From Escherichia phage Baskent_phicoli_1: a DNA stretch of 39,500 nucleotides. Shown here one piece after another: positions 1-39,500 of the stretch. How positions within the stretch are numbered: position 1 is the stretch's first letter; each line of letters begins with the position of its first letter. Location of the stretch: sequence record PP766721.1; one strand, written 5' to 3'. The notes under the pieces are model-generated. The model ran no database searches. It saw only the letters and a program-made list of their open reading frames with translations, and was not told the origin of the DNA. A program made the position numbers and the translations under genes.

Positions 1-300
1 CATCGTCTGATTTACACCGAGAACTTCGGTCCAATCCCGGATGGTCTGGTAGTCAGGCATAAATGCGACAACCGTTGGTGCGTTAACCCTGAGCACTTAG
101 AGCTTGGGACTCAGCGTGATAACATACACGACTGCGTTACCCGTGGTCGTCACAATAACGCCAAGCTGTCAGACCAGCAGGTCCGTGAAATCCGAAAGGA
201 TAAGCGTAGCTCCCGTGCTGTAGCGGCTGACTATGGCATTGACCATAAGGGCGTATTGGCGGTCAGGAACCGTAAGTCTTATCAACATGTGGAGGACTGA
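1..300 (+). CDS. HNH homing endonuclease, 3' portion (ORF starts at 39165 and continues across the window wrap; stop TGA 298-300)
   Basis: Frame open from base 1; translation ...AHRLIYTENFGPIPDGLVVRHKCDNRWCVNPEHLELGTQRDNIHDC... is a classic HNH motif; bases 1-252 repeat 39249-39500. Confidence 0.85.
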   Translation, partial: HRLIYTENFGPIPDGLVVRHKCDNRWCVNPEHLELGTQRDNIHDCVTRGRHNNAKLSDQQVREIRKDKRSSRAVAADYGIDHKGVLAVRNRKSYQHVED

Positions 301-1167
301 ATGTCTGAAAAGAAAATAGCTCTGGTGCTGGACGGTGATTACCTAGTATTCTCTTCTATGGCTGCTGCCGAGGATGAGACTGACTGGGGTGATGATATTT
401 ATACTCTGATTTGTGACCACGCCAAGGCTCGTCGTATCCTTGAGAACACCATCGCTGAAATCGTTAAGAAGCGCAAGGCGTGGAAAGACGCTAAGATTGT
501 GATGTGCTTCACCGATGACGTGAACTGGCGCAAGTCAATATTACCTACCTATAAGGCTAACCGTAAAGGTTCTCGCAAGCCTGTAGGTTACAAGAAGTTC
601 GTAGCCGAAGTGATGGCTGACCCACGGTTCAACAGCTTCCTTCGTCCTACGCTTGAGGGTGATGACTGTATGGGTATCATCGGGACACGACCTCAGATTG
701 TAGGTTGTGACCATGCGGTTCTGGTATCATGCGATAAGGATTTCAAGACCATCCCGAACTGTGAGTTCTTCTGGTTAACCACTGGTGAAATCCTGAGTCA
801 TACGACTGCTGAGGCAGACTACTGGCACATGGAGCAAACCATCAAGGGTGACACTACAGATGGCTACGGCGGGATTCCGGGGATGGGTGAGGACACCACT
901 CGTGCGTTCCTTGACGAGCCGTACTACTTCGTGCAGGAGAGCCGTGAGCTTAAGACTGGCAAGAACAAAGGCCAGATTAAGACTGAGTGGAAGAAGCATC
1001 CTAAGCGTGAAGACATGACGCTGTGGGACTGCATGGTAACTCTGGCTGCTAAAGCTGGGATGACCGAGGAGGAACTTCTGGTCCAAGCTCAGGTCGCTCG
1101 TATTTGCCGAGCCTCCGACTACGACCCTAAGTCCAAGGAGGTCATCCTGTGGACACCATCCATGTAA
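301..1167 (+). CDS. gp6: 5'-3' exonuclease (T7 gene 6 homolog)
   Basis: 288 aa; CDHAKAR, FTDxVNWRK, YKANRK, KPVGY, LEGDDxMG, SCDKDFKTIPNC, QTIKGDxTDGY, SGKNKGQ, LWDC, AKAGMTEE all align with remembered T7 gp6. Confidence 0.95.
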   Translation: MSEKKIALVLDGDYLVFSSMAAAEDETDWGDDIYTLICDHAKARRILENTIAEIVKKRKAWKDAKIVMCFTDDVNWRKSILPTYKANRKGSRKPVGYKKFVAEVMADPRFNSFLRPTLEGDDCMGIIGTRPQIVGCDHAVLVSCDKDFKTIPNCEFFWLTTGEILSHTTAEADYWHMEQTIKGDTTDGYGGIPGMGEDTTRAFLDEPYYFVQESRELKTGKNKGQIKTEWKKHPKREDMTLWDCMVTLAAKAGMTEEELLVQAQVARICRASDYDPKSKEVILWTPSM

Positions 1168-1893: not shown

Positions 1894-2298
1894 ATGCTAC
1901 CATATCTCAACTCACGCGAAGGTCGCCACATGTGTGCCTGTCGCCTCTGGGAAGACGGGCAGTCTAACTTCAAGTCATTCGAGGACTTCAAGGCTCATAC
2001 TTACCGTATGGCTGACGAGTTCGACGGTGAAGAGTACACAATCTACGATGTCTCAGGTCAACCAGTAGCGTATCTCTACATGCTGGCTACCGCATCTTGG
2101 CACCGACCTACTCCCGGTCTTGACCTTTCAATCGTCGCTATTCGTCGTGACTCGCAGTCCTCCCGCAAGGTTCTTGAGACTGTCAGACACATCATAGACG
2201 AAGAGTGCAAGCGTTGGGGTCTTGGCTGGTATTCTCGTGTCAAGCATGTTTCCGGGTCGGTAGACATCGTAACAACTAAGGAGATTAATCGTGGGTAA
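1894..2298 (+). CDS. gp7: Virion protein at gene 7 position (host range protein-like)
   Basis: 134 aa, size and position match T7 gp7; tight coupling to neighbours. Confidence 0.65.
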   Translation: MLPYLNSREGRHMCACRLWEDGQSNFKSFEDFKAHTYRMADEFDGEEYTIYDVSGQPVAYLYMLATASWHRPTPGLDLSIVAIRRDSQSSRKVLETVRHIIDEECKRWGLGWYSRVKHVSGSVDIVTTKEINRG

Positions 2299-2539
2299 AT
2301 CAATCAGTAAGGCCTTCAAGAAAGTGGTGAAAAGTACGCTAGGGACCGTTGGGCTTGGCTCTGATGACGCGCCTAAGGTTGTTGAGGCTCAGACCCCAGC
2401 AGCACCAGTGGAAGTACCGAACGACAAAGTGGAGGATGTGGATACTGAAGCAACCGCATCTGACGAGAAGAAAGTGAAGCGTTCCGGTAAGCGGACCCTT
2501 CAGGTCTCTCGCACCTCGGGTGGCGGTATTTCTATTTAA
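2291..2539 (+). CDS. gp7.3: Tail assembly/ejected protein gp7.3 homolog (GTG start)
   Basis: 82 aa; MGK...KAxKKVxKS N-terminus and SGGGIxI C-terminus as in T7 gp7.3. Confidence 0.8.
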   Translation: MGKSISKAFKKVVKSTLGTVGLGSDDAPKVVEAQTPAAPVEVPNDKVEDVDTEATASDEKKVKRSGKRTLQVSRTSGGGISI

Positions 2540-2550
2540 GGAGGTGACGA

Positions 2551-4119: not shown

Positions 4120-4137
4120 ACTATCACTATAGGAACA
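4115..4137 (+). promoter_or_regulatory. Phage RNAP promoter (phi9-like), +1 G about 4132
   Basis: TAAACTATCACTATAGGAAC overlapping gene 8 stop. Confidence 0.75.
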
Positions 4138-4234
4138 CCGAAAGTAAGAGCGACTAAGCCGACCATATGGTAGCCGTTAGTCCCACACTGCAAGTAGGTG
4201 TTTACCTATTAACGACTTAAAGGAGAATGACTCA

Positions 4235-5119
4235 ATGTCTCAATCAGTTTATGCCGAGTTTGGCGTTAGCTCTACTGCAATCACGGGTTCCGTTGAGGAC
4301 CTGAACGAACACCAAAAGTCTATGCTTGAACAGGACGTAGCTGTTCGTGATGGAGACGACGCTATTACCTTCAAGCAACTGGAAGCCGAAAACGAAGAGG
4401 CGACCGAAGAAGACGAGAACGTCGAAGAGACTGAAGGTGAAGAAGACCATGAGTCCGATGACGAAGAGTCTGAGACCGATGGTGAGCAGCCTGAGTTCAT
4501 CGAACTGGGTGATGCACCGAAAGAGCTGACCGAAAGTGTCACCGCCTTGGATGAAAATGAAGCTGCATTCGACGACATGGTGTCTTCTGCTGTGGAAGCT
4601 GGCAAGGTCACTGCTGATGAAATTACCGCTATCAAGGCTGAATACGCCAAGGACGGTAAGCTGTCTGACGCATCCTACGCTAAGTTGCAGGAAGCAGGTT
4701 ACACCAAGCGTTTCGTAGATTCGTTTGTACGTGGTCAGGAAGCTCTGGCTGAACAGTATGCTGCTGGTGTGGTTCGCTACGCTGGTGGAGCTGAACAGTT
4801 TAATCGAATCCTGTCACACCTTGAGTCCAACGACCCGTCAACTCGTGAAGCACTGGAAGCTGCTATCGTTCGTAAGGACATCGCGACTACCAAAGCTCTG
4901 CTGAATCTGGCTGGAAAGACTCTGGGTAAAGCTGTGGGTGTTAAACCTCAGCGTACCATCACCACTCAGGCTAAACCTGTGGTCGCACCTAAGGCTCCTC
5001 AGACCGAAGCATTCAGCTCCAAGGCTGACATGATTAAGGCAATGAGTGACCCGCGCTACCTGCGTGACGCTAAGTACACGATGGAAGTTCGCGCTAAGGT
5101 AGCTGCCTCAAGCCTGTAG
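4235..5119 (+). CDS. gp9: Capsid assembly scaffolding protein, gene 9
   Basis: 294 aa, strongly acidic (E/D-rich) N-terminal third, position between portal and capsid genes. Confidence 0.88.
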   Translation: MSQSVYAEFGVSSTAITGSVEDLNEHQKSMLEQDVAVRDGDDAITFKQLEAENEEATEEDENVEETEGEEDHESDDEESETDGEQPEFIELGDAPKELTESVTALDENEAAFDDMVSSAVEAGKVTADEITAIKAEYAKDGKLSDASYAKLQEAGYTKRFVDSFVRGQEALAEQYAAGVVRYAGGAEQFNRILSHLESNDPSTREALEAAIVRKDIATTKALLNLAGKTLGKAVGVKPQRTITTQAKPVVAPKAPQTEAFSSKADMIKAMSDPRYLRDAKYTMEVRAKVAASSL

Positions 5120-5120
5120 G

Positions 5121-5143
5121 ACTAAACTATCACTATAGGGAGA
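5121..5143 (+). promoter_or_regulatory. Phage RNAP promoter phi10 (full consensus), +1 G about 5138
   Basis: TAAACTATCACTATAGGGAGA directly upstream of major capsid gene with long leader and strong SD. Confidence 0.85.
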
Positions 5144-5243
5144 CCAAGACGCGACTCAAGGTTTCCCATTACTTCAGTCCATACGGATTGGGCGTACAGT
5201 AAGTAATAAACTTTATCTTTCAATTGAATAGGAGAATTATCAT

Positions 5244-6293
5244 ATGGCAAACGTTCCGGGTCAGAAAATTGGTACAGACCAAGGTAAAGGCAAATCTAGT
5301 TCCGACGCTCTGGCGTTGTTCCTGAAGGTCTTTGCTGGTGAAGTCCTGACCGCATTCACTCGCCGCTCTGTAACGGCTGACAAGCATATTGTCCGTACCA
5401 TTCAGAACGGTAAGTCTGCTCAGTTCCCGGTCATGGGTCGCACCTCTGGTGTGTATCTGGCTCCCGGTGAGCGACTGTCCGATAAGCGTAAAGGTATCAA
5501 ACATACCGAGAAAGTGATTACCATTGATGGTCTGCTGACTGCCGATGTGATGATTTTCGACATTGAAGACGCGATGAACCACTATGACGTGGCTGGCGAG
5601 TACTCCAACCAGTTGGGTGAAGCTCTGGCTATCGCTGCTGATGGTGCGGTTCTGGCTGAAATGGCTCTCCTGTGTAACCTCCCGGCCGCATCCAACGAGA
5701 ATATTGCCGGTCTGGGCACTGCGTCAGTACTTGAAGTTGGTACTAAAGCCGACCTGAACACTCCGGCTAAGCTGGGTGAAGCAATCATCGGTCAACTGAC
5801 CATTGCTCGTGCGAAGCTGACCTCCAACTACGTTCCTGCTGGCGACCGATACTTCTACACCACGCCGGACAACTACTCTGCAATCCTCGCGGCTCTGATG
5901 CCGAACGCTGCTAACTATGCTGCGCTGATTGACCCAGAGACTGGCAACATCCGTAACGTGATGGGCTTCGTTGTTGTTGAGGTCCCGCATCTGGTGCAGG
6001 GTGGTGCTGGTGAGACCCGTGGTGACGATGGTATCTCTATCGCCTCCGGTCAGAAACACGCATTCCCGGCGACTGCTGCTGGCGACGTTAAAGTTGCTAT
6101 GGACAACGTTGTGGGTCTGTTCTCTCACCGTTCTGCTGTGGGTACTGTGAAGCTGCGTGACTTGGCGCTGGAACGTGACCGTGACGTCGATGCTCAGGGC
6201 GACCTGATTGTTGGTAAGTACGCTATGGGTCACGGTGGTCTGCGTCCTGAAGCAGCGGGCGCACTGGTTTTCACAGCAGCGTCAGCGGGTTAA
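5244..6293 (+). CDS. gp10A: Major capsid protein 10A
   Basis: 349 aa; LALFLKVFxGEVLTAF, KSAQFPV, KHTEKVITIDGLLTADV, EDAMNHYDV, LMPNAANYAALIDPE, RNVMGF, HRSAVGTVKLRDLALER, KYAMGHGGLRPEAAGA match T7 gp10A. Confidence 0.97.
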   Translation: MANVPGQKIGTDQGKGKSSSDALALFLKVFAGEVLTAFTRRSVTADKHIVRTIQNGKSAQFPVMGRTSGVYLAPGERLSDKRKGIKHTEKVITIDGLLTADVMIFDIEDAMNHYDVAGEYSNQLGEALAIAADGAVLAEMALLCNLPAASNENIAGLGTASVLEVGTKADLNTPAKLGEAIIGQLTIARAKLTSNYVPAGDRYFYTTPDNYSAILAALMPNAANYAALIDPETGNIRNVMGFVVVEVPHLVQGGAGETRGDDGISIASGQKHAFPATAAGDVKVAMDNVVGLFSHRSAVGTVKLRDLALERDRDVDAQGDLIVGKYAMGHGGLRPEAAGALVFTAASAG

Positions 6294-6613: not shown

Positions 6614-7180
6614 ATGGCTCAATACATTCCACTGAATGCTAACGATGACTTAGATGCCATCAACGATATGTTAGCTGCTATCGGTGAACCAGCAGTCCTA
6701 CAGCTTGACGAAGGCAATGCTGACGTCTCGAATGCTCAACGTATCCTGCATCGTGTCAATCGTCAGGTCCAAGCTAAAGGCTGGAACTTTAATATCAACG
6801 AAGCTGCCGTCCTGACACCTGATGTCAAAGACAATAGGATTCGATTCTTGCCGTCATACCTTCGTGTAATGACCGCTGGTGCCACCAGCTACTACAGCAA
6901 CATGGGTGGATACCTGTACGACCTATCCACTCAGTCAACCACTTTCACCGACCCTATCACGGTAGAGCTTGTGGAGATGAAGCCATTCTCCGAGATGCCT
7001 GTGGTCTTCAGGGACTACATCGTCACTAAAGCTAGCCGTGAGTTTAACGCTAAGTTCTTCGGTAGCCCAGAGTCAGAGCTATACCTTCGTGAGCAGGAAG
7101 CAGAACTCTATCAGCAGGTTATGGAGTACGAGATGGACACTGGTCGCTACAACATGATGTCTGACATCGGGAGGGACTAA
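6614..7180 (+). CDS. gp11: Tail tubular protein A, gene 11
   Basis: 188 aa; position and size as T7 gp11 (196 aa). Confidence 0.88.
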   Translation: MAQYIPLNANDDLDAINDMLAAIGEPAVLQLDEGNADVSNAQRILHRVNRQVQAKGWNFNINEAAVLTPDVKDNRIRFLPSYLRVMTAGATSYYSNMGGYLYDLSTQSTTFTDPITVELVEMKPFSEMPVVFRDYIVTKASREFNAKFFGSPESELYLREQEAELYQQVMEYEMDTGRYNMMSDIGRD

Positions 7181-9851: not shown

Positions 9852-10322
9852 ATGTATATTCGCAAGGCTACGGAACCAGATGTCCACCACTTTCTGTGGC
9901 ATCTTTCAGCAGATGATGTTAATGAGTGCAAAGCAAACTATGGGTCAACCGTTGGTCTCTCTGAAAGACTGCTTAAGCACCTATCTCCGTCATCTGTGGT
10001 TTTAACGAACGGTGTAGGAGAAGTGTTTGCCTATGGCGGAAACCAAGGGGATAACGTGTGGTTCTTGACTTCCGGTCAGGTCTACAAGCTGAGACCTAAA
10101 GAGAAGAGAGAGTTCATAAAGCGTATCTCTGAGTACAGGGACTTAATGTTAGACCAATACGGGACCATCTGGAACTACGTGTGGTCAGGCAATAAGTCTC
10201 ACATTAAATTCTTGAAGTTGCTTGGAGCTAAATTCCATGATGATTGGACTGTAAGCCCAGTAACTGGTGAGCGTTTTCAACTATTCACTATCTCTAAGGA
10301 GGACGTATGTGCGAGCCAGTAA
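9852..10322 (+). CDS. gp13: Internal virion protein, gene 13
   Basis: 156 aa at the T7 gene 13 position, overlapping gene 14 start. Confidence 0.8.
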   Translation: MYIRKATEPDVHHFLWHLSADDVNECKANYGSTVGLSERLLKHLSPSSVVLTNGVGEVFAYGGNQGDNVWFLTSGQVYKLRPKEKREFIKRISEYRDLMLDQYGTIWNYVWSGNKSHIKFLKLLGAKFHDDWTVSPVTGERFQLFTISKEDVCASQ

Positions 10323-10894
10323 GTATCGGCATGGGTATTATGGCTGTAGCTGGTGCCACTATGTCCGCATCCCAGCAGGCCAAGGCCGAGGGTGCTGCTA
10401 TCGACGCTCAGAACCGACAGGCTCAGGAAATGGTTAAGCAGATGAACTACTCTGACGCCAACCTGAAGATGCAGGAGCGAGACCTGAAGGAGCAGCAGAT
10501 GGCTGAACTGACAGAGACCACGTTAAACGGTATCCGCAATCAGGGTATGGTCCGAGCTGCGGTAGCTGAGTCCGGTCTGGAAGGTAACTCTATGGACAGG
10601 ATTGAACGTCAGGTCGAGGGAGACACAGTCAAGGAGAGGGCCGGGATTACCGAAAGTTACAACCGTGACTATGCGGCTATCTTCGGGAACCGTATCGCCA
10701 ACATTGAGAACACCAAGTCTGCTATCCGTGGTCAAGGTAAAATCATCAAGACCAGCCCACTAGCTCACGCACTTAATGTTGCAAGCGCCGGGATGCAAGG
10801 GTACGCTGCTGGTAAGTCAATCTCTGGGGCATCAAGCTCTGGTGGTTCTGCACCGATTAGTGCTGCTAAAGGCACACCTACAGGTCATAGCTAA
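10307..10894 (+). CDS. gp14: Internal virion (core) protein, gene 14
   Basis: 195 aa; MC... N-terminus, EGxSMDRI, YxRDYxAIF and C-terminal AAKGTxTG as in T7 gp14 (196 aa). Confidence 0.9.
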   Translation: MCEPVSIGMGIMAVAGATMSASQQAKAEGAAIDAQNRQAQEMVKQMNYSDANLKMQERDLKEQQMAELTETTLNGIRNQGMVRAAVAESGLEGNSMDRIERQVEGDTVKERAGITESYNRDYAAIFGNRIANIENTKSAIRGQGKIIKTSPLAHALNVASAGMQGYAAGKSISGASSSGGSAPISAAKGTPTGHS

Positions 10895-13192: not shown

Positions 13193-16100
13193 ATGGCGAC
13201 TCGTGGTATTCGCAATAACAATCCGGGTAACATCCGGGTAAGTAAGGACCAATGGGAAGGAATGACTGGAGATGATGGAGCATTCGTCACCTTCGATAGT
13301 CCAGAGTCTGGCGTCCGAGCTTTAGGTAAAAACCTGCTGTCCTACGGTCGCCAAGGTTATGACTCCATCGAGAAGATTATCAACCGATGGGCTCCTCCTA
13401 ATGAGAATGACACTCAGGCTTATATTGACTCAGTGGTGGCTGCGACTGGTATCCCAGCTACCCAGAGTCTCGACCTCTCTAACCCGGACACCCTGTCTGC
13501 TCTGGCGCAAGCTATCAGCTTCCATGAGACAGGCTCCCGGTACAACCCTGAAGTCTACCAGCAGGGGGTCGCAAGAGCACTCAACGGTATCAGCCCAAAG
13601 ACTCCACCAGTAAGCGCTAACGTATTTGACGCACTCACGGAAGGACTCAAGGCTAAACCTAAAGTAGCTCTGGGTGAGAACCTTCCGACCGCTGCTGGTC
13701 TGAACATTGAGGGTCAAGCACCTGAAGCTCCAAACGAATCGTTCGGTGAGATGTTCTATAAAGCTACTGGAGAGACCATGCAGGAACGAGAGAACCGCTC
13801 TACGTGGTTCGGTTTCGGGGCGGCTACAGAAGCTGAAGTGAAGAACTCTATGGTCGGCGTGGCTATCCGAGCTGGTCAGACTGAGGACTCACTGGATGTC
13901 ATTGGCGATGTGTTCAACCCAACCAGATGGAACAACCATAAGTGGTCTCGTGAAGAGCTGGACCAGATTCGTAACGCTGGGGTTCTGCCTCAGTATTACG
14001 GAGTCATTACTGGTGGTTCTCCTCAGAACCTGACCGAGCTTATTAACTTGGCGCTTGAGAACCAGAAGTTGGACCAAGAGAAGGCCAAGGCTGGGACTGG
14101 TGCTCAGTTGGCTGCTGGTGTGATTGGCGCTGGTGTGGACCCTCTGACCTACGTTCCCATTGCTGGACAGGTTGGTAAGGGCGGTAAGCTGGTCAATAAG
14201 ATGTTCACCGTGGCTGCTCAATCTGGAGCACTAGCTGGTGTGTCTGAGATGGCCCGTACCTCAGTGGCTGGTGGTGATGCTCATGTGGCTGAAGCTATCC
14301 TTGGTGGTGCTCTCTTCGGTGGTGGTATGACTGCTATCGCTGATGGACTAGGCAGAGCCTTAGGCCGAAACACTAATGAGTTTGCTGGTCCAGCTACACG
14401 TCTGGAAGCTCGTGAGACTGCTCGTAACGTTGATGGTCAGGACCTATCTCGTCTACCTATTCAGGAAGGTGAGCAGACCTTTATTCATCAAGGTGTTAAG
14501 TTCGCAGACGTTCCGAACGAGCCGGGTAGTGTACGACTGGAAGATGGTTCAATCCTGATTGGTGAGAACCCTCTGAACCCTAAGACACGTCAAGTCTTTG
14601 ACGAAGTGATTGAGCCGGAACGTGCCGCTGCTGGTGTGAACCTTGGTGGACTTACCGAGATTGGCCTGAAGCTGCTTCGGTCTGAGAACCCTGAGATTCG
14701 TGGAGTAGCTGCTGACTTAGTACGTTCACCGACTGGTATGCAGTCTGGGGCCTCAGGTAAAATAGGGACAACTGCGTCAGACGTGTTCGAGAGACTTCGT
14801 GCTGTTGACCATCGGTTCTACAACGACATCGACGATGCGGTTACTGAGGCACTAAAGGACCCGTACTTCCAGACAGCATTCTGGCGAGACTCTGGCGCAT
14901 TCCGTCAGGACATCTACCAGCGTGTGTCTATGGCTATCGAAGATGGTAGCGGAAACCTGAAGGCTGAACTGACTCCGGGAGAGCTGAAAGTCTATGACCT
15001 ACTGAAGAACCAGTTTGACGCCAAGCGTGAGATGATGGAGAATCCAGCTATGTTTGGTCGTCCAGACGCTAAGTCTATCTTTCCGGGTAGCCGCTTCAAG
15101 GGAACCTACGTCCCTCATGTGTACAGCAAACAGATGAAGGAGCTGTACATCAAGGAGCTTGGGAGTACAGAGGCGTTACAGGAGGCAATCAAGAAGTCAT
15201 GGCTTACCAGCTATGCGTCTCGACCTGAAGTCAAGAAACGCGTGGACGAGGCACTCTTAGAGGCCGACCCTACGTTGACTCCAGAAGGACTTGCGGCTGC
15301 GGTCGATAAGTACGCCAACGATAAGGCTTACGGTATCTCTCACACTGAGCAGTTCGAGCGTTCATCCGTAATGGAAGAGAATATCAACGGTCTGGTAGGT
15401 CTGGAGAACAACAGCTTCCTTGAGGCGCGCAACCTGTTCGATAGCGATATGTCAATCGTCCTGCCTAACGGTCAGACCTTCAGTGTCAATAACCTACGTG
15501 AGTGGGACATGGACAAGATTGTCCCGGCCTACAATCGTCGAGTTAACGGCGACATTGCTATCATGGCTGGTACAGGCAAAACCACGAAGGACATGAAGGA
15601 CTTGGTTGAGACCATGATGAACAAGGCTGGGGATGACGGTAAGTTGAAAGGTGAAGTATCTACCTTACGTGACACCTTGAAGATTCTAACTGGTCGTGCT
15701 CGACGTGATGGTGCTGATGATGCAGCCTTCGCTACCGTGATGCGCACAATGACAGACCTATCGTTCTTCGCTAAGAATGCCTACATGGGTGTTCAGAACT
15801 TAACGGAGATTGGTGGTATGCTGGCTCGTGGCAACGTTCGTGCGCTGCTGCATGGAGTCCCGATTTTCCGTGACCTAGCCTTCCGTAACAAGAAGGTAGG
15901 GGCCTCAGAGATTAAGGACCTGCATAGTGTTCTCTTCGGTAAAGAATTGGATGACTCAATCCGCCCGTCTAAACAGGATGTCATTGACCGTCTGCGATCT
16001 TACAGTGACCTCGGGCGTGGTACAGCTACAGCTCTGGGGACTGCCAAGTATTACACTGGTGAACTTGCAGTACGCTCTCCGTTCACTAAAGTCCTAAACG

Positions 16101-17080
16101 GTACGACCAACTACCTGTTAGATGCTGGACGTCAAGGCTTTCTGTCTGACATCGTGGAGCATAGCCTGACTGGTAGTAAGCGTAAGTTCGATGACCGCTG
16201 GCTGAAGACAGCTGGTATCTCTGACGAGCAGTGGAAGGGCATTAAGTCCCTAATCCGTGAGTCAGTGACTCGTGGTCCAGACGGGAAGTACACCATCAAG
16301 GATAAGAAGGCGTTCAGTCAGGACCCAAGGGCTATGGACCTGTGGCGTATGGGAGACACCATCGCTGACGAAACGTTACTCCGTCCTCATAAGCTGTCAA
16401 ACATGGACGCCAAGGCTTATGGTCCTCTCGCTAAGACTGTCCTTCAGTTTAAGAACTTCGTCATCAAGTCCATCAATGGTCGAACAATGCGAACCTTCTA
16501 TAACGCCACGAAGAACAACCGAGCGATGGATGCTGCTCTGTCCACTGTGATGTCTATGGGCCTTGCTGGTATCTACTACATGGCTCAGGCACACATCAAG
16601 GCTTACGCTATGCAGGATGGTCGAGACCGTGACTATCTCAAGCAAGCTCTGGACCCGACGATGATTGGCTATGCAGCTCTATCGCGTAGTTCACATCTTG
16701 GTGGACCACTTGGGGTAGCTAACATTCTTGGGGGTATCGCTGGGTACGAGGACACTAAGATGCTCCGTTCGTCTATCCTACCTCGTTCGCCTACAGAGAA
16801 GCCTGAACGTGCCATCGCGTATGGTGCATCTACAAGTGACCCTGTGATGAATGTTGTTGGTAACTTCTTGGAGCAGGTTCCAGCTTTCGGATATGCTGCT
16901 AACGTTGGCGCTTCGGCTTACAACTTGGCTGGCTACCTCAAGGCCGATACTCGTGTCAACGAGCGTGACTACATGACAGGGATGTATAATACGTTCCGTG
17001 AACTGGTTCCGAACGACCCCATTACCCAGAGGCTGTTGCTTGGAACGTTTGAGGAGCAAGGCATCCACATCAAGGACTAA
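13193..17080 (+). CDS. gp16: Internal virion (core) protein, gene 16
   Basis: 1295 aa; long collinear similarity to T7 gp16 from about residue 190 (STWFGF, RWNxHxWxxEELxxIR, VITGGSPxNL, AGxIGAGVDPLxYVP, ARETARN, VRSPTGMQSGASGK, TYVPHVY, SFLEARNLFDSD, NYLLDAxRQG, AMDLWR); N-terminal about 120 aa differ. Confidence 0.95.
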   Translation: MATRGIRNNNPGNIRVSKDQWEGMTGDDGAFVTFDSPESGVRALGKNLLSYGRQGYDSIEKIINRWAPPNENDTQAYIDSVVAATGIPATQSLDLSNPDTLSALAQAISFHETGSRYNPEVYQQGVARALNGISPKTPPVSANVFDALTEGLKAKPKVALGENLPTAAGLNIEGQAPEAPNESFGEMFYKATGETMQERENRSTWFGFGAATEAEVKNSMVGVAIRAGQTEDSLDVIGDVFNPTRWNNHKWSREELDQIRNAGVLPQYYGVITGGSPQNLTELINLALENQKLDQEKAKAGTGAQLAAGVIGAGVDPLTYVPIAGQVGKGGKLVNKMFTVAAQSGALAGVSEMARTSVAGGDAHVAEAILGGALFGGGMTAIADGLGRALGRNTNEFAGPATRLEARETARNVDGQDLSRLPIQEGEQTFIHQGVKFADVPNEPGSVRLEDGSILIGENPLNPKTRQVFDEVIEPERAAAGVNLGGLTEIGLKLLRSENPEIRGVAADLVRSPTGMQSGASGKIGTTASDVFERLRAVDHRFYNDIDDAVTEALKDPYFQTAFWRDSGAFRQDIYQRVSMAIEDGSGNLKAELTPGELKVYDLLKNQFDAKREMMENPAMFGRPDAKSIFPGSRFKGTYVPHVYSKQMKELYIKELGSTEALQEAIKKSWLTSYASRPEVKKRVDEALLEADPTLTPEGLAAAVDKYANDKAYGISHTEQFERSSVMEENINGLVGLENNSFLEARNLFDSDMSIVLPNGQTFSVNNLREWDMDKIVPAYNRRVNGDIAIMAGTGKTTKDMKDLVETMMNKAGDDGKLKGEVSTLRDTLKILTGRARRDGADDAAFATVMRTMTDLSFFAKNAYMGVQNLTEIGGMLARGNVRALLHGVPIFRDLAFRNKKVGASEIKDLHSVLFGKELDDSIRPSKQDVIDRLRSYSDLGRGTATALGTAKYYTGELAVRSPFTKVLNGTTNYLLDAGRQGFLSDIVEHSLTGSKRKFDDRWLKTAGISDEQWKGIKSLIRESVTRGPDGKYTIKDKKAFSQDPRAMDLWRMGDTIADETLLRPHKLSNMDAKAYGPLAKTVLQFKNFVIKSINGRTMRTFYNATKNNRAMDAALSTVMSMGLAGIYYMAQAHIKAYAMQDGRDRDYLKQALDPTMIGYAALSRSSHLGGPLGVANILGGIAGYEDTKMLRSSILPRSPTEKPERAIAYGASTSDPVMNVVGNFLEQVPAFGYAANVGASAYNLAGYLKADTRVNERDYMTGMYNTFRELVPNDPITQRLLLGTFEEQGIHIKD

Positions 17081-17098
17081 ACTATCACTATAGGAAAC
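17076..17098 (+). promoter_or_regulatory. Phage RNAP promoter (phi17-like), +1 G about 17093
   Basis: TAAACTATCACTATAGGAAA overlapping gene 16 stop. Confidence 0.75.
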
Positions 17099-17144
17099 TG
17101 GAGGCGCTACCATAGGTCTCCGTTTAAATCACAAAGGAGGCATA

Positions 17145-19301
17145 ATGTCCACGATTACACAATTCCCTTCAGGAAACACTCAGTACAGGATTGAGTTCGA
17201 CTACCTAGCCAGAACGTTTGTTGTTGTTACGCTGGTGAATAGCTCTAACCCTACCCTGAACCGTGTACTGGAAGTTGGTAGAGATTACCGATTCCTTAAT
17301 CCAACGATGATTGAGATGTTGGTTGACCAATCAGGTTTCGACATCGTTCGTATTCACCGTCAGACTGGAACTGACTTAGTGGTAGACTTCAGGAATGGCT
17401 CAGTGTTGACAGCTAGTGACCTGACCAATGCAGAGCTTCAGGCTATCCATATTGCAGAGGAAGGTCGAGACCAAACTGTTGACTTAGCGAAGGAATATGC
17501 TGATGCTGCTGGCAGCTCTGCTGGCAACGCTAAGGATAGCGAGGACGAAGCACGACGAATCGCTGAGAGTATCAAGGCAGCTGGTCGCTTTGGCTATATT
17601 ACCCGTCGCTCCTTCGAGAAAGGCTTCAACGTTACAACATGGAACGAGGCCCTGCTATGGGAAGAGGATGGTGATTATTACCGCTGGGATGGTACGCTTC
17701 CAAAGAACGTTCCTGCTGGTTCAACTCCTGAAGCGTCTGGTGGTATTGGTCTTGGTGCGTGGGTTAGCGTTGGTGACGCATCATTACGAGCCGATTTGTC
17801 GTCAAAAGATGGGATGGAATTAATAGGAGGCGACCTTAAATCATACGGAGCAGATGCTTCTGGGTCAACTCCATGTGACAGCCAACTTTCACAAATGCTA
17901 GCTGATAAAAAATTCATAGTTAACTCTGGAACTTACTTAATAACATCTACTATTGAGGTGGACATTTCCTCACTTGAATATGTAGAAGTTGGTCCTGATG
18001 TTGAATTTATCATTAAAAGCAACATTAATGGTTTCATATTTAAGAATCCGAATGCTAATTTCGACGCTAACGGTATGCGTATAACCGTAGACATCCCCGG
18101 AGGTGGATACACAAGTACAGCACTAACCTTAAGGGGGGGTAAATATTACACTGGGCCTGCTAACTTTAGCCGGTTATCCCATAAGAATAAATTTGGACCA
18201 TTTTACGTATACAACAGACAGGGTGCCGTTAAGCAAGAGTCAGCGTCTGCTCCTGTTACCGATGAGGGGTACGGCTTCTCTATAGACTGCAACTCAGCAG
18301 GTGAAGAAATTCTGATATGGAACGAAGTTGATGTCTCATCCACCGGGTTTACTGTTGCTCATGCAATTGGCGTAGGAACCAATCCACTTAACTTTATTTC
18401 ATCTCTTGACCTTAAGTTGGTATCCTGGTTCAGTACATATCACTTCAGGGACACCAGTATCCCGAAATCTGGCGGCAACGTAGCTGGGGGAATTGGGGAT
18501 GTGCGTGTGCGATTACAATCACAACCTCACGCTCAGATGGTTAAAGTTGTGCATATGGAGCACGCACCTGGCTTCATGAGTGGTTGCCGATTTGACCTGT
18601 CAATCTGGGACCCTAACGCCTATGGATATACCGCGAACGTGGTCGATGCATCCGTGACGAACGAATATACAAATACTATGGAGCGGAAAGCATATCCGTT
18701 AACTCGAGTGTTGAACATGGTAGATGGTAGTATATTCCCGGTCGTGAATTACACCAGTAGCATCCAGCAGTCTGATATACTTTCCAGTAGTGACCCTGAA
18801 CTGGCTAAGTACCTGTACCTATCAACTGTAACGCCAGAAATGACAGTGTTACAAGCATGTAACGCTATTAAAACATGGTGTAACGAAAATAACATCCGTA
18901 ATAATTTTGAATTCAAAGTGTTTTTAGGAGACTCTACCGCCGACATACGTAACGTTTTTCTCCCGTGGATAACAGCTATAGGTGACTCCTCAGGATACTT
19001 ACATCTATATGCTACTTTTTACAATGGAATTATAAATACAGTGCGTGTCGAGTACGAGGTTAATCCGATAACCAGCGGCGGAAAGACAGAAAAACACGAA
19101 ATATTATGGACAAACACAACAGGTCTTGTGTTGCATCGCCTGATTGAGTACTCATTCGGTACCACGGCTGAGATAAAAAGCAAGGTAGCCATACAAGTGA
19201 AAGGCTTCACTACTTTTGACTCAACTTTCAACATCCCTGTTTGGTATAATGGCAATAGTTCATGGCTTAAAGCAGACGGTTCTGTGGCATATTCTGCTTA
19301 A
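17145..19301 (+). CDS. gp17: Tail fiber / tailspike: T7 gp17-like N-terminal adaptor fused to a large C-terminal domain (putative polysaccharide depolymerase)
   Basis: 718 aa; N-terminal about 150 aa (FDYLARTFVVVTL, LVVDFRNGSVLTASDL, QAIHIAEEGRD) match T7 gp17; linker WxSVGDASLRADLSSKDG is typical of tailspike beta-helix starts; C-terminal region is visibly AT-rich. Confidence 0.88.
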   Translation: MSTITQFPSGNTQYRIEFDYLARTFVVVTLVNSSNPTLNRVLEVGRDYRFLNPTMIEMLVDQSGFDIVRIHRQTGTDLVVDFRNGSVLTASDLTNAELQAIHIAEEGRDQTVDLAKEYADAAGSSAGNAKDSEDEARRIAESIKAAGRFGYITRRSFEKGFNVTTWNEALLWEEDGDYYRWDGTLPKNVPAGSTPEASGGIGLGAWVSVGDASLRADLSSKDGMELIGGDLKSYGADASGSTPCDSQLSQMLADKKFIVNSGTYLITSTIEVDISSLEYVEVGPDVEFIIKSNINGFIFKNPNANFDANGMRITVDIPGGGYTSTALTLRGGKYYTGPANFSRLSHKNKFGPFYVYNRQGAVKQESASAPVTDEGYGFSIDCNSAGEEILIWNEVDVSSTGFTVAHAIGVGTNPLNFISSLDLKLVSWFSTYHFRDTSIPKSGGNVAGGIGDVRVRLQSQPHAQMVKVVHMEHAPGFMSGCRFDLSIWDPNAYGYTANVVDASVTNEYTNTMERKAYPLTRVLNMVDGSIFPVVNYTSSIQQSDILSSSDPELAKYLYLSTVTPEMTVLQACNAIKTWCNENNIRNNFEFKVFLGDSTADIRNVFLPWITAIGDSSGYLHLYATFYNGIINTVRVEYEVNPITSGGKTEKHEILWTNTTGLVLHRLIEYSFGTTAEIKSKVAIQVKGFTTFDSTFNIPVWYNGNSSWLKADGSVAYSA

Positions 19302-19860: not shown

Positions 19861-19908
19861 GTTAGACTCAAGGTCATTACTATATGTAGTGGCCTTTATG
19901 GTTAACAC
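19861..19908 (+). promoter_or_regulatory. Conserved structured element (putative RNase III processing site, R18.5-like)
   Basis: TAGACTCAAGGTCAT-N11-GTGGCCTTTATGGTTA; same motif recurs at 24457, 29273 and 36452. Confidence 0.55.
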
Positions 19909-19959
19909 TAACTAGTGGAGGAGACTCTACGTGAAATCTGATAAACCGGGAGGGCAACT

Positions 19960-20569: not shown

Positions 20570-22333
20570 TTGAGTAAAGACTTAGTGGCGCGTCAGGCGC
20601 TAATGACTGCCCGTATGAAGGCAGACTTCGTGTTCTTCCTGTTCGTCCTGTGGAAAGCTCTGTCGCTCCCAGTCCCGACTCGCTGTCAGATTGACATGGC
20701 GAAGAAACTATCGGCTGGGGACAACAGGCGCTTCATCCTGCAGGCGTTCCGTGGTATCGGGAAGTCCTTCATTACGTGTGCCTTCGTTGTCTGGAAGCTA
20801 TGGAACAACCCAGACTTGAAGTTCATGATTGTGTCGGCCTCAAAGGAACGAGCCGATGCTAACTCCATCTTCATCAAGCGAATCATCGACCTCATGCCTC
20901 AGCTTCAGGAACTCAAACCTAAGCAGGGACAGCGAGATGCGGTTATCAGCTTCGACGTTGGACCAGCCAAGCCCGACCACTCACCTTCGGTTAAGTCCGT
21001 TGGTATCACTGGTCAGTTGACTGGTAGTCGTGCTGACATCCTGATTGCCGATGACGTGGAGGTCCCTAACAACTCAGCGACTCAGGCTGCACGAGACCGT
21101 CTGTCAGAGCTTGTGAAAGAGTTCGACGCTATCCTGAAGCCGGGAGGTACAATCATCTATCTGGGTACTCCTCAGAACGAGATGACCTTGTATCGTGAGC
21201 TGGAAGGCCGTGGATACACCACTACTATCTGGCCTGCTCGTTATCCACGCGATAAGAAGGACTGGCAGTCTTACGGCGACCGTCTGGCACCGATGCTTCA
21301 GGCAGAGCTGGAAGAGGACCCTGAGTCCTTCTACTGGCGTCCGACTGATGAAGTACGCTTCGATGATACGGACCTGAAGGAACGTGAGCTGTCCTATGGT
21401 AAAGCTGGCTTCGCTCTACAGTTCATGCTTAACCCGAACCTTAGTGATGCCGAGAAGTACCCTCTGAAGCTCCGTGACCTTATCGTAGCAGACTTGGACC
21501 CAGCGTCCAGCCCAATGGTCTACCAATGGCTGCCAAACCCTCAGAACAAGCGTGAGGACGTCCCTAACGTTGGACTCATGGGTGACTCATACCACACGTA
21601 TCAGACTGTAGGTTCTGCCTTCAGTTCGTACACCCAGAAGATTCTGGTCATTGACCCTAGTGGTCGTGGTAAGGATGAAACTGGCTATGCGGTACTGTAC
21701 CAGCTCAACGGCTACATCTTCGCTATGGAAGTTGGTGGTATGCGTGGTGGTTATGAAGACTCTACGCTGGAAGCTCTGGCTAAGATTGGTCGTAAGTGGA
21801 AGGTCAACGAATACGTCATTGAGGGTAACTTCGGTGATGGTATGTACCTTGAGCTATTCAAGCCCGTAGCAGCCCGTATCCACCCTGCTGCTGTAACTGA
21901 AGTGAAGAGTAAGGGTCAGAAAGAACTCCGCATCTGTGACGTTCTGGAGCCTATCATGGGGTCTCACCGACTTATCGTTAACGCTGCTGCTATCGTCCAA
22001 GACTACCAGTCGGCCTCTGATAAGGATGGTGTTCGTAACCCTATCTACTCTCTCTTCTACCAGATGACACGTATCTCTCGTGAACGTGGAGCCTTGGCAC
22101 ACGATGACAGACTTGATGCGCTGGCTATCGGTGTACAGTTCTTCGTTGAGTCTATGGCTAAGGATGCCAACAAAGGCGAACGTGAAGTCACTGAGGAGTG
22201 GCTGGAGGAACAGATGGAGAACCCACGGAAAGGCTTCGAGTCCATCCACACTGAGTTCTGGGACAATGGGGTCCGGGTAACTCACGATACGGACGACGAG
22301 CTGGGGCTAGGGTCCTACGTTACGTTTCACTAG
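20570..22333 (+). CDS. gp19: Terminase large subunit (DNA maturase B), gene 19; apparent TTG start
   Basis: 587 aa; [23 protein letters not shown], [76 protein letters not shown], [25 protein letters not shown] essentially as in T7 gp19; AAGGAGG SD 7 nt before TTG. Confidence 0.97.
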
Positions 22334-22427
22334 CTGAATGAATAACTATGGGTGAAAGCTGCATGAATACGCAGTTAGTAACCTATGGTTACAACCAGGC
22401 TAACCTACTGTTTTATAAGAAGTTTGG

Positions 22428-22450
22428 ACTTAACTATCACTATAGGGAAG
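22428..22450 (+). promoter_or_regulatory. Phage RNAP promoter (phiOR-like), +1 G about 22445
   Basis: CTTAACTATCACTATAGGGAAG downstream of terminase gene. Confidence 0.75.
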
Positions 22451-22630
22451 ACCCCCGGTTACTTATAGTATTACTGTAGTGAATATACATATGCAGACTT
22501 TATGCAAGACCTTAGGAGGCAGACTCCGAGTTCTTACCTAAGGCTTGCACCGATGGAAGGAGGGTGATATTAATAATAATCCCTCCAATACAGATAGTCA
22601 CCGACCATAGATACAGGAGGTATGTAGCAT

Positions 22631-23026: not shown

Positions 23027-23210
23027 TCTCACAGTTCAAGAACCTCAAGTCTCCCCATAGGCCCTCTTTCAGTCCAGACCAAAGGCCCTACCCAGTCTAT
23101 CATAAGGTTGGACCGATGGTCAAGACTTCAGGTCAACGATAGGTTGAGGCTATGGCTGGAGGTCGGGACGATAGGTTGGGACTATGGGTCTGTCTCTGAG
23201 TCTCTATCTG
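23027..23210 (+). repeat. Inferred left genome end and direct terminal repeat (collapsed to one copy here)
   Basis: TCTCACAGTTCAAGAACC...CCCCATAGG matches the T7 left end TCTCACAGTGTACGGACC...CCCCCATAGGGGG; the 3' boundary of the repeat is a guess. Confidence 0.45.
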
Positions 23211-23240: not shown

Positions 23241-23310
23241 CACCTACAGTCTCACTACCTACAGTCTCCGACCATGAGACACTCACTACCTACAGTCATA
23301 GACCTACAGA
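23241..23310 (+). repeat. Array of four (A)CCTACAG(T) heptamer repeats downstream of the terminal repeat
   Basis: ACCTACAGTCTC, CTACCTACAGTCTCC, CTACCTACAGTCAT, GACCTACAGATAA read directly. Confidence 0.6.
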
Positions 23311-23941: not shown

Positions 23942-24277
23942 ATGGAACGTAACGCTAACGCATACTATGAGCTGCTGGCTGCAACCGTTGAAGCATTTAA
24001 CGAGAGCATTCAGTACGACAAAATAGCTGAAGGTGATGACTACAGCGATGCGCTGCATGAAGTCGTAGACAGTCATGTTCCGCACTATTACCACGAGATT
24101 TTCACGGTGATGGCTGCTGATGGTATTGACCATGAGTTCGAAGACTCTGGGCTGATGCCTGAGACCAAGGACGTAACGCGTATACTACAAGCTCGCATTT
24201 ATGAAGCACTGTATAACGATGTATCTAATAGCTCGGATGTAGTCTGGTTCGAGTCTACTGAGGAGGAATGCGAGTGA
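23942..24277 (+). CDS. ocr: Ocr (gene 0.3) DNA-mimic anti-restriction protein
   Basis: 111 aa, very acidic; VPHYYxxIFxVMAxxGIDxEFEDSGLMPxTKDVxRILQARIYE nearly identical to T7 Ocr. Confidence 0.92.
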   Translation: MERNANAYYELLAATVEAFNESIQYDKIAEGDDYSDALHEVVDSHVPHYYHEIFTVMAADGIDHEFEDSGLMPETKDVTRILQARIYEALYNDVSNSSDVVWFESTEEECE

Positions 24278-25399: not shown

Positions 25400-25708
25400 A
25401 TGAGCAAGTCAAACGGTCTGGCATACGCAATGGTGGTAGCAATGGAAGAAGCAATCATGGCCCGTAAGTCCCGCTCTGAACGCGAACAAGCGGAGCGTGA
25501 TATGGTCCTGACTAAGCGCATGTTGGCTGAGGGCCACAAGGTAGACACCATGATTTATGTCTACGGGTCCACCAACATGAAGTCTGAAGACGGTAAGCTG
25601 CTGCTGGCAGGTAGACGGGCTGACATCCAACGGGCAAGCCTGAAGCACACGACACGCGGTGACTTCAGTCATCTTCACGCTAACCAACTGATATGCAAGC
25701 AATTCTGA
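25400..25708 (+). CDS. Hypothetical early protein (102 aa)
   Basis: ORF with compact spacing after the Endo VII-like gene; no motif recognised. Confidence 0.55.
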   Translation: MSKSNGLAYAMVVAMEEAIMARKSRSEREQAERDMVLTKRMLAEGHKVDTMIYVYGSTNMKSEDGKLLLAGRRADIQRASLKHTTRGDFSHLHANQLICKQF

Positions 25709-25730
25709 CTTAACTATCACTATAGGACTC
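25708..25730 (+). promoter_or_regulatory. Phage RNAP promoter immediately upstream of the RNAP gene, +1 G about 25725
   Basis: CTTAACTATCACTATAGGACTC, one or two mismatches to the window consensus, 75 bp before gene 1 ATG. Confidence 0.65.
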
Positions 25731-25799
25731 AAGGTCTAAGACTCCAAGTGAAAGACCAAAGAGACTTTAAGTGAAAGACTAATAACAAGGACTTTAAGT

Positions 25800-28787: not shown

Positions 28788-29258
28788 ATGTTCGGTAAGT
28801 CAAAACTTAAAGCACAAATCAAAGAGTTGAGCATGAAGGTGGCATACTTGGAGCGAGCCATAAAGGTACGGGACTATGACAACGAGAGACTGAAGGCTAA
28901 ACTTGCTGAATCAGAGCGTAAGCGCCTAACGCCACCAGCGGCTGTAACTGTCAAGCGTATGGTCGGCATCAAGTTCAAGGCACTGTTCGACGGTAAGTAT
29001 CAACCGACTGAGTTCAAGACAGGCCCGGGACCATGTGGCAAGACGGTGACGCACTTCACCATAAGTTGGACAGAGCGAAGTATGACCGTCCACCAGCATC
29101 ATACGGATGGCTCTCAGAAGGACTTCGTGTACCGACTGAGCGACATCGACGGTCGAATACAGTATGACTACGAGCAAGTTAAAATCTACGGAGAAGAGGC
29201 CAAACGTGAGTCAGCGCTTCAGGCATTCATGCGGATAGGGCCGCGCATCCTATTCTAA
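28788..29258 (+). CDS. Hypothetical early protein (156 aa), helical/charged N-terminus
   Basis: ORF with GAAGAGG SD; absent from T7 at this position. Confidence 0.6.
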   Translation: MFGKSKLKAQIKELSMKVAYLERAIKVRDYDNERLKAKLAESERKRLTPPAAVTVKRMVGIKFKALFDGKYQPTEFKTGPGPCGKTVTHFTISWTERSMTVHQHHTDGSQKDFVYRLSDIDGRIQYDYEQVKIYGEEAKRESALQAFMRIGPRILF

Positions 29259-29276
29259 ACTATCACTATAGGATTA
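29254..29276 (+). promoter_or_regulatory. Phage RNAP promoter (phi1.1-like), +1 G about 29271
   Basis: TAAACTATCACTATAGGATT. Confidence 0.75.
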
Positions 29277-29318
29277 GACTCAAGGTCATGACTCAAAGTC
29301 GTGGCCTTCATGATTAAC
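29273..29318 (+). promoter_or_regulatory. Conserved structured element (putative RNase III site, R1.1-like)
   Basis: TAGACTCAAGGTCAT-N11-GTGGCCTTCATGATTA. Confidence 0.55.
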
Positions 29319-29366
29319 CCTGTAGCAAAGCTACTACCTAACGTAAACTACTGGAGATTTAACCAC

Positions 29367-30960: not shown

Positions 30961-30983
30961 TACGTCTAGGACACCAGCTAGAC

Positions 30984-31006
30984 CCTAAGCTATCACTATA
31001 GGACAA
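30984..31006 (+). promoter_or_regulatory. Phage RNAP promoter variant, +1 G about 31001
   Basis: CTAAGCTATCACTATAGGACAA (G at -12). Confidence 0.65.
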
Positions 31007-31030
31007 CCATCAACAACCTAAGGAGACTCT

Positions 31031-31921: not shown

Positions 31922-32080
31922 ATGAGTGACGCCGAGAAGAAATACATCGTTGAGCTTGAGGGCCGCACTCAGTACTTCGAGGTTCCTGTGTACGCAAAGT
32001 CTCTTGAAGAGGCTACCCTGAAGTCCCAAGAGTATGAGGACGCTGGGTTTGTGGTCGGACGGATTCGTCCTGAGACCTAA
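31922..32080 (+). CDS. gp2: Host RNA polymerase inhibitor gp2 homolog
   Basis: 52 aa ORF below track cutoff; [13 protein letters not shown]...[10 protein letters not shown] matches T7 Gp2 FEVPIYAETLDEA...AGFEVTRVRP; AAGGAG SD. Confidence 0.75.
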
Positions 32081-32098
32081 ACTATCACTGTAGGACAG
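32076..32098 (+). promoter_or_regulatory. Phage RNAP promoter variant (phi2.5-like), +1 G about 32093
   Basis: TAAACTATCACTGTAGGACAG (G at -3). Confidence 0.6.
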
Positions 32099-32137
32099 AC
32101 GTCCAGTTCGTAACTTTAAATTAGGAGATTTACACCG

Positions 32138-34251: not shown

Positions 34252-34467
34252 ATGATTAAACTTATCGAATTTCTGGGTCGTCTGGTGGTGCGTGGTTATC
34301 GTCGCGCTGCGGCTATGGAACGAAAGGTAGCAGAGAAGTCTGCTGACGGTGCGGCTGATGCTGCTGCTCTGGCTGACAAGCTAACCATCACATCACTGGA
34401 AGCTGGCATGAGGGCGCGTCAAGCTGATACCAAGGCTGACCAGTTGGCCCAGTTCTTCAAAGCCTAA
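34252..34467 (+). CDS. Hypothetical small protein (71 aa)
   Basis: ORF with AAGGAGA SD; Ala-rich; ends QLAQFFKA. Confidence 0.55.
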   Translation: MIKLIEFLGRLVVRGYRRAAAMERKVAEKSADGAADAAALADKLTITSLEAGMRARQADTKADQLAQFFKA

Positions 34468-34485
34468 ACTATCACCTTAGGGATG
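34463..34485 (+). promoter_or_regulatory. Degenerate phage promoter-like sequence upstream of gene 4
   Basis: TAAACTATCACCTTAGGGAT: two mismatches in the -4/-3 melting region. Confidence 0.35.
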
Positions 34486-34532
34486 GGACCATAAGTCCTG
34501 TCCCTCTGTTCGCATTTGTGATTAAGGAGTGA

Positions 34533-36287: not shown

Positions 36288-36452
36288 GTGTTTACGAAAC
36301 TTAAAGCTCGATACCATCGGTTCATGTACAAATGGTGGAGCGATGAAGCAGCCTGCCTGTCGAACATTCTGGGAGACCAGCGGTTCAACTCTGCGGCGTG
36401 GAAGAGAGCTAACCGTAAGTTTATGTATCACTTCTTGCGTACAGACTTCTAG
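36288..36452 (+). CDS. Tentative small protein (54 aa from GTG 36288), C-terminus ...LRTDF
   Basis: GGAGG 9 nt upstream of GTG; ORF-track version starts at TTG 36252; no homolog recognised. Confidence 0.3.
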   Translation: MFTKLKARYHRFMYKWWSDEAACLSNILGDQRFNSAAWKRANRKFMYHFLRTDF

Positions 36453-36497
36453 GTCTAGACTCAAGGTCATTCACATCGAGTGGCCTTTATGATTAGA
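36452..36497 (+). promoter_or_regulatory. Conserved structured element (putative RNase III site, R4.7-like) upstream of gene 5
   Basis: TAGACTCAAGGTCAT-N10-GTGGCCTTTATGATTA. Confidence 0.55.
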
Positions 36498-38687: not shown

Positions 38688-38959
38688 TGGCTATTACTAA
38701 ACGCCTTACCTGTAAGTTTGACATGAAGATTGTAGTTACGTCTGAGGACGTGGAGTCATACGTTCTTAATATGGTGGAGCTTACCAAGGGTTATGTCTCA
38801 GGTGAGAAACTGGACGGCATGGCCCGGAAGCTGGTAGAGACTGCTGTAGAGCAGGGTGTCGAAGCTGCCATTGAGCTGCACCTGAAGTCTGTTCTAGCAT
38901 CCAAACTGAAAGACGAGCTGCAAGGGGTCTACAATATCAGCACGAGGTTCAAGCAATGA
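38687..38959 (+). CDS. gp5.5: gp5.5 homolog (H-NS-binding protein in T7)
   Basis: ATG overlapping gene 5 stop (TAATG); MAxTKxxxxxFDxxxxxxSxDV N-terminus resembles T7 gp5.5. Confidence 0.7.
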   Translation: MAITKRLTCKFDMKIVVTSEDVESYVLNMVELTKGYVSGEKLDGMARKLVETAVEQGVEAAIELHLKSVLASKLKDELQGVYNISTRFKQ

Positions 38960-39165
38960 GTGAATACTTACGGGTCCTAGCGGCCCTTAAGTCCTGCCCG
39001 AAGACCTTCCAGTCCAACTATGTGCGCAACAACGCTGCACTTGTGGCTGAGGCTGCGAGTCGTGGACATCTGAGCTGCCTGTCTACGGATGGGCGTAACA
39101 ATGGTGCGTGGGAGATTACCGCCGAAGGCGTTAAGTTCCTGAACAAACATGGAGGCTGTCTATAA
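38956..39165 (+). CDS. gp5.7: gp5.7 homolog (host RNAP/sigma-S associated inhibitor in T7)
   Basis: 69 aa; MSEYLRVLAALKSCPKTFQSNYVRNNAALVAEAASRGHLSCL...GAWEITAEG...GGC nearly identical to T7 gp5.7. Confidence 0.88.
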   Translation: MSEYLRVLAALKSCPKTFQSNYVRNNAALVAEAASRGHLSCLSTDGRNNGAWEITAEGVKFLNKHGGCL

Positions 39166-39500
39166 TGACCGAGTGTACCCGTTGGACTGGCTATTTCCTA
39201 TCTAATGGGTATGGTCAGATAAAGAAATCTGGCGTCAAGTGGCTGGCTCATCGTCTGATTTACACCGAGAACTTCGGTCCAATCCCGGATGGTCTGGTAG
39301 TCAGGCATAAATGCGACAACCGTTGGTGCGTTAACCCTGAGCACTTAGAGCTTGGGACTCAGCGTGATAACATAAACGACTGCGTTACCCGTGGTCGTCA
39401 CAATAACGCCAAGCTGTCAGACCAGCAGGTCCGTGAAATCCGAAAGGATAAGCGTAGCTCCCGTGCTGTAGCGGCTGACTATGGCATTGACCATAAGGGC
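39165..39500 (+). CDS. HNH homing endonuclease, 5' portion (continues at window start; full gene 384 nt / 127 aa)
   Basis: ATG overlaps gp5.7 stop (TAATG); MTECTRWTGYFLSNGYGQIKKSGVKWLAHRLIYTENFGPIPDGLVVRHKCDNRWCVNPEHLELGT... Confidence 0.85.
   Translation, partial: MTECTRWTGYFLSNGYGQIKKSGVKWLAHRLIYTENFGPIPDGLVVRHKCDNRWCVNPEHLELGTQRDNINDCVTRGRHNNAKLSDQQVREIRKDKRSSRAVAADYGIDHKG

Follow-up and report, generated by a model that had tools for sequence, protein, structure and literature searches.

A 252-bp end duplicate in the genome record of Escherichia phage Baskent_phicoli_1, very probably an untrimmed contig overlap within an HNH endonuclease gene

General features of the genome record

The stretch of DNA analysed here, referred to as the window, comprises 39,500 nucleotides of Escherichia phage Baskent_phicoli_1 and begins and ends within the same gene, which encodes a predicted free-standing homing endonuclease of the HNH_3 family and is flanked by the genes for a gp5.7-like protein and the gp6 exonuclease (Table 1). 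All of the large open reading frames are located on the plus strand in the T7 order, and the phage is a T7-like member of the genus Kayfunavirus, approximately 94% identical to Escherichia phages TH20, TH16 and ST31. The record PP766721 was described as 'circular', with a length of 39500 bp and a GC content of 50.06%, and was obtained from a Nextera XT library sequenced on the NovaSeq 6000, with Shovill v1.0 as the assembler and RASTtk for the annotation (PMC13319148); the accession of the reads is PRJNA1330585. The GC content of the window is 0.50063, and the gene coordinates 5244-6293, 6614-7180, 10307-10894, 23942-24277 and 31922-32080 given in that paper coincide with open reading frames of the window, which identifies it as the entire deposited record. 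The contig was deposited unaltered, as a 'circular 39,500-bp genome'.

The consensus sequence of the K1F-type phage RNA polymerase promoter, CTAAACTATCACTATAGG, was found in ten copies, all on the plus strand, a count that is to be read as at least ten. Two intergenic sites (19862-19909 and 29274-29321) share a 48-nt element with 83% conservation; a third, partial copy occurs at 36450-36470, and the element may represent a conserved RNA processing site or terminator hairpin. The tail fibre/tailspike gene (17145-19301) lies in the stretch of lowest GC content, 0.44-0.47 vs about 0.50 overall, and only the first ~220 residues of its product match the N-terminal families of T7-type tail fibres; both features are consistent with a swapped receptor-binding module. 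The paper describing the phage reports a siphovirus-like morphology (210-nm tail) and a 'tape measure protein', while the genome is that of a T7-like podovirus. A PHROG family named tape measure protein is matched by the transglycosylase domain at the N-terminus of the gp16-like internal virion protein (13193-17080), and this match may be the source of the annotation.

Table 1. Features of the window, with coordinates counted from its first base
Feature	Position	Strand	Remarks
Predicted HNH_3 homing-endonuclease gene, 5' part (codons 1-112)	39165..39500	+	Continues at 253 after trimming
HNH gene, 3' part (codons 29-127 and stop)	1..300	+	
gp5.7-like gene	38956..39165	+	Upstream flank of the HNH insertion
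gp6 exonuclease gene	301..1167	+	Downstream flank of the HNH insertion
Start copy of the 252-bp duplicate	1..252	+	HNH codons 29-112; C at 127 (His71)
End copy of the 252-bp duplicate	39249..39500	+	A at 39375 (Asn71), allele common to relatives
Variant base C, codon CAC, His71	127..127	+	Flanked within the repeat by 126 nt on the left and 125 nt on the right
Variant base A, codon AAC, Asn71	39375..39375	+	
Putative copy-end to copy-start junction of the 252-bp duplicate			...GACCATAAGGGC followed by CATCGTCTGATT...
Homolog of the K1F 178-bp direct terminal repeat	23027..23204	+	Starts TCTCACAG, ends ...GAGTCTC at 23204; single copy
K1F-type promoters	1291-1318, 4112-4139, 5118-5145, 17073-17100, 22425-22452	+	
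K1F-type promoters	25705-25732, 29251-29278, 30981-31008, 32073-32100, 34460-34487	+	

The HNH gene and its insertion site

Read from 39165 to 39248 and onwards from 1 to 300, the HNH gene comprises 384 nt and encodes a protein of 127 aa. The two allelic forms of this protein that can be read from the record (see below) match the Pfam family HNH_3 with scores of 61.4 and 61.8 bits, the gathering threshold being 24.8, and HNH families of the PHROG collection are matched as well. The gene represents a clean insertion of approximately 384 bp, with the gp5.7 stop codon on one side and the gp6 start codon (ATG) on the other. Most of the matches to Kayfunavirus genomes end at position 39163 of the window, and in ASO2B the gp5.7 gene abuts that of gp6 with no insert (2057-2266 and 2263-3129 in sequence L016). 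The HNH gene is absent from most Kayfunavirus genomes and present in Monomax, pO91 and KE05/14/18, while the berlinviruses FE44 and PC192 carry an HNH gene in the same slot with an amino-acid identity of 76-77%. A gene that occurs in some genomes and is missing from others, while its neighbours are conserved, is what is usually seen with free-standing homing endonucleases, the homing itself being predicted from sequence. In Salmonella phage vB_SalS_PC192 (1501-1878 in sequence L005) the homologous frame is interrupted by a stop codon, and the annotation is limited to a 57-aa piece; this may reflect decay of a homing-endonuclease gene or a sequencing error.

In an alignment of 120 homologs, residues H48, C50, C55, H60, G64, N69 and D72 are invariant. 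Alignment with the homing endonuclease I-HmuI (PDB 1U3E), which is weak (E = 0.024) and consistent with the Pfam match, places H48 opposite His75, N69 opposite Asn96 and residue 71 opposite Glu98. The residues His75 and Asn96 of I-HmuI are reportedly the catalytic histidine and the metal-binding asparagine of the beta-beta-alpha-metal motif, and their counterparts H48 and N69 are conserved in 120 of 120 homologs. Position 71 is occupied by Arg in 27 of the 120 homologs, by Gln in 25, Asn in 21, His in 9, and Lys and Ala in 8 each. The possibility that residue 71 is a zinc ligand or a catalytic residue was rejected on account of this variable alignment column. According to the alignment, it is a variable position, predicted to be non-catalytic, in the helix following the metal-binding Asn69.

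The end duplicate and its single mismatch

An initial reading made from the sequence alone (the sequence-only reading) had reported a 252-bp duplicate at the two ends with one mismatch, and direct comparison confirmed this in all details: the first 252 bases of the window are identical to the last 252 except for C127 and A39375. A repeat finder returned the end duplicate as a single 252-nt family with a spacing of 39,248 bp. The longest other exact direct repeat within the 39,248-bp unit is just 22 bp long, and the duplicate is therefore not a product of chance.

The mismatch affects the first base of codon 71 of the HNH gene, which is CAC in the start copy and AAC in the end copy, and translation bore out the proposed change between His and Asn at residue 71 of the 127-aa protein. 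The site had also been placed two residues beyond the asparagine of the HNH motif, which agrees with the identification of N69 as that residue by its invariance and its alignment with Asn96 of I-HmuI. However, the weight given to the change of an HNH residue was overstated, since position 71 is among the most variable of the motif helix. As His and Asn are both found there in natural homologs, the substitution would not be expected to alter function.

Position of the genome ends

The genome of phage K1F (NC_007456) has an exact direct terminal repeat of 178 bp, determined by experiment, whose left end maps to position 23027 of the window and whose right end maps to 23204. The sequence TCTCACAG, aligned at 23027, is the end sequence of the T7 group, and the homologous segment is preceded by the large terminase gene (20570-22333) and followed by the ocr-like gene (23942-24277). 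Since this homolog is present in a single copy, we infer that the virion DNA would be linear with fixed ends at this place, and it is probably neither circular nor permuted; the physical ends at 23027-23204 were probably collapsed by the assembly. By homology to K1F, the packaged DNA would be approximately 39,426 bp long, extending from 23027 through the trimmed junction of the record to 23204. Just downstream of the terminal-repeat homolog there are two 23-nt direct repeats (CTCACTACCTACAGTC...), 31 nt apart (23251-23304), which resemble the short repeat arrays beside the left end of T7.

The sequence-only reading had interpreted the window as a circular permutation of a unit of roughly 39,248 bp. 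It was right in that both ends represent the same locus and that the unit is 39,248 bp long, but this describes the assembly and not the phage, whose fixed ends would lie at the homolog of the K1F terminal repeat, found once in the record.

Origin of the duplicate

The 252-bp duplicate is very probably an overlap of the two contig ends that was left untrimmed in a short-read de Bruijn-graph assembly (Shovill/SPAdes) and not a biological repeat, and with such an overlap the record is best explained as containing 39,248 bp of non-redundant sequence. The duplicate occupies precisely the first and the last bases of the window, which is the whole of record PP766721. Trimming of one copy restores the single-copy colinearity with relatives: the resulting junction can be aligned colinearly and without gaps to the KE05 gene, which is single-copy, and also aligns with Monomax and pO91. 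Searches of IMG/VR with HNH peptides and with an exact DNA pattern did not recover the contig itself, yielding only FE44 and distant homologs. The copy-to-copy junction was not found in IMG/VR or GTDB contigs, and in the five phage records carrying this HNH gene the junction query matched only as two separate pieces; this absence is weak evidence, since few records carry the gene at all. The variant lies at the centre of the overlap, with 126 nt on one side and 125 nt on the other, i.e. with flanks within 1-2 nt of 127, the maximum k of SPAdes, and this central position suggests that the variant caused the overlap. The collapse of the 178-bp direct terminal repeat to one copy would have closed the linear genome as a circle in the assembly graph, and most likely there were two alleles among the reads at this site, the assembler coming in on one and going out on the other. 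As the path would have entered and left the site on different alleles, the two contig ends would never have been recognised as identical.

A location at both ends of the record and a size like that of terminal repeats are what biological terminal redundancy would also present, be it a direct terminal repeat or headful permutation, and end repeats of this kind are taken for terminal repeats by completeness tools. However, the duplicate lies within the protein-coding sequence of the HNH gene between genes 5.7 and 6, whereas the direct terminal repeat is expected in non-coding DNA between gene 19/19.5 and gene 0.3. The segment to which the K1F terminal repeat maps is about 16 kb distant from the window ends and is flanked by the terminase and ocr genes. 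T7-like phages package their DNA from concatemers at fixed ends and not by headful, and the conserved K1F-type terminal repeat, the T7-group end sequence, the T7-like terminase and the gene order all stand against a headful, permuted genome. The duplicate was therefore rejected as the terminal repeat of the phage in favour of the K1F repeat homolog, and terminal redundancy in either form appears almost inconceivable as its origin.

A more serious competitor is a real in-frame tandem duplication of 252 bp in the HNH gene, of the form X-R(A)-R(C)-Y, producing a 211-aa protein with two HNH cores. The assembly would have been broken at the repeat, giving R, the rest of the genome and R again, and polishing would have restored the bases specific to each copy. 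Repeats longer than k land at both contig ends in de Bruijn assemblers, so that such a duplication would likewise yield a contig beginning and ending with the repeat, which counts against the overlap explanation. It also predicts the observed arrangement of the alleles, with the C copy beside the 3' flank and the A copy beside the 5' flank, and the record read as a circle contains an uninterrupted 211-aa open reading frame, 252 being divisible by 3. The length of the duplicate also favours it. A plain circular contig of SPAdes overlaps by exactly k (at most 127) and not by 252; an unresolved SNP bubble at k=127 predicts 255, a dead-end branch 254 and the k-1 convention 253, and with 2x150 reads Shovill normally caps k near 111, for which the predicted overlap is 223. 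The 252 nt, or 126 + 1 + 125, match none of the lengths 127, 223, 253, 254 and 255, the k used in the assembly not being reported, so that the geometry is close to k-derived lengths but leaves 1-3 nt unexplained under an overlap origin. Moreover, SPAdes normally collapses simple SNP bubbles, and an additional condition, such as very high coverage, must therefore be assumed for an overlap.

Nevertheless, a tandem duplication appears improbable. Under this explanation the placement of the only difference at the centre of the repeat would be a coincidence of the order of 1%, while it is expected for a k-mer artefact, and the first copy would have its C-terminal region split. In T7-like phages, which are proficient in recombination, tandem repeats are unstable; the junction is missing from the IMG/VR and GTDB contigs and the five phage records mentioned above, and the only duplicated protein among the 15 listed members of the 34-member HNH cluster is the record's own entry. 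Were the duplication real, Baskent_phicoli_1 would be a Kayfunavirus with a recent in-frame duplication of 84 codons in a free-standing homing endonuclease, now of 211 aa, whose two HNH catalytic cores differ at one residue (N71 vs H155).

Allelic state of the mismatch

The A (Asn71) allele is found in Monomax, pO91 and KE05, as determined by alignment, and the listed 127-aa members of the HNH cluster have Asn71 except for one with Lys. A scan of metagenomes with a pattern spanning the variant recovered one SPAdes contig from ENA (L015), which belongs to a different phage, is 97% identical and carries the A allele. The C/His71 allele was found in none of these close relatives (Monomax, pO91, KE05, the ENA contig and the 127-aa cluster members). 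On this distribution, A/Asn is the lineage-typical and ancestral allele, and since nearly all of the relatives have Asn, C/His at the start of the record represents a derived or erroneous state.

The proposal of the sequence-only reading that the mismatch reflects either population heterogeneity or an assembly or sequencing error at the contig overlap was framed correctly, the window being a deposited Shovill/SPAdes contig. The second possibility, in which the duplicate is still an overlap artefact and the mismatch is a recurrent base-calling error or an assembly or polishing error at a contig end, with the C allele absent from the population, is a sub-case of the assembly overlap and not an alternative to it. 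The absence of C/His from all of the close relatives examined speaks for an error, and support in an assembly is weakest at the ends of contigs. However, Shovill combines graph assembly, read correction and Pilon polishing, which retain only bases with repeated read support, and the variant, being central, seems to have shaped the graph; an error of this kind has somewhat less than an even chance. As between a subpopulation variant and a recurrent error, we lean slightly towards a real variant, because a base retained through graph assembly and polishing needs repeated support from the reads.

Consequences for the deposited record

A practical consequence that escaped the sequence-only reading is that an HNH protein of 211 aa with an internal duplication of 84 aa is now present in public protein databases. 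The entry UniRef100_A0AAU8B8S7 (Baskent_phicoli_1, 211 aa) is the exact translation of join(39165..39500,1..300), which appeared in the annotation because the record was treated as circular, and it is probably an artefact. In the 90%-identity cluster of this HNH protein, which has 34 members, 13 of the 15 listed are 127 aa long, the other two being the 211-aa entry itself and a 57-aa fragment. An exact look-up of both 127-aa HNH alleles found neither in the protein collection, as expected when the deposited protein is the 211-aa read-through; no identical protein was recorded for the exonuclease either.

The value of these observations is for curation and not for new biology: the duplicate exists in the file, but the phage itself most likely lacks it. 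The published genome of a therapeutic candidate, PP766721, would accordingly be 252 bp too long, have the wrong (circular) topology and lack the real 178-bp terminal repeat, and through it a probably artefactual 211-aa 'HNH endonuclease' has entered UniRef. Tools that accept end repeats as proof that a genome is complete or has terminal repeats would go wrong with this record. An end overlap near 2k in length, bearing one mismatch at its centre, is a recognisable signature, which may serve to flag within-sample variants in short-read assemblies of phages.

Comparison with known systems

The HNH protein resembles the free-standing HNH_3 homing endonucleases of T7-like phages (gp7.7 or gp5.3-like) in its Pfam HNH_3 and PHROG matches and in the clean insertion of its gene between conserved genes. 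Unlike I-HmuI (1U3E), the structural prototype, it belongs to a subfamily with invariant C50, C55 and H60, which I-HmuI lacks.

As to the ends of the genome, the segment at 23027-23204 is homologous to the K1F/T7 terminal repeat (178 bp in NC_007456), with the same position, length and TCTCACAG start, while the 252-bp end duplicate shares neither sequence nor position with it, and the real repeat occurs only once in the record.

The closest parallel to the duplicate is provided by the untrimmed k-mer overlaps at the ends of SPAdes/Shovill contigs that assemble as circles, among them Shovill assemblies of T7-like przondoviruses, in which the terminal repeats were lost and repeats of approximately 79 bp were gained, the latter being artefacts according to Sanger sequencing (PMC10438801). 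As in Baskent_phicoli_1, the same locus was found at both contig ends of a T7-like phage assembled by the same pipeline, the real terminal repeat was collapsed, and the duplicate lay outside the terminal-repeat region and inflated the genome length. In contrast to a plain overlap of length k (31, 55, 79, 103 or 127), the overlap of Baskent_phicoli_1 is 252 bp long with one central mismatch, and it looks like a variant-centred double-k overlap.
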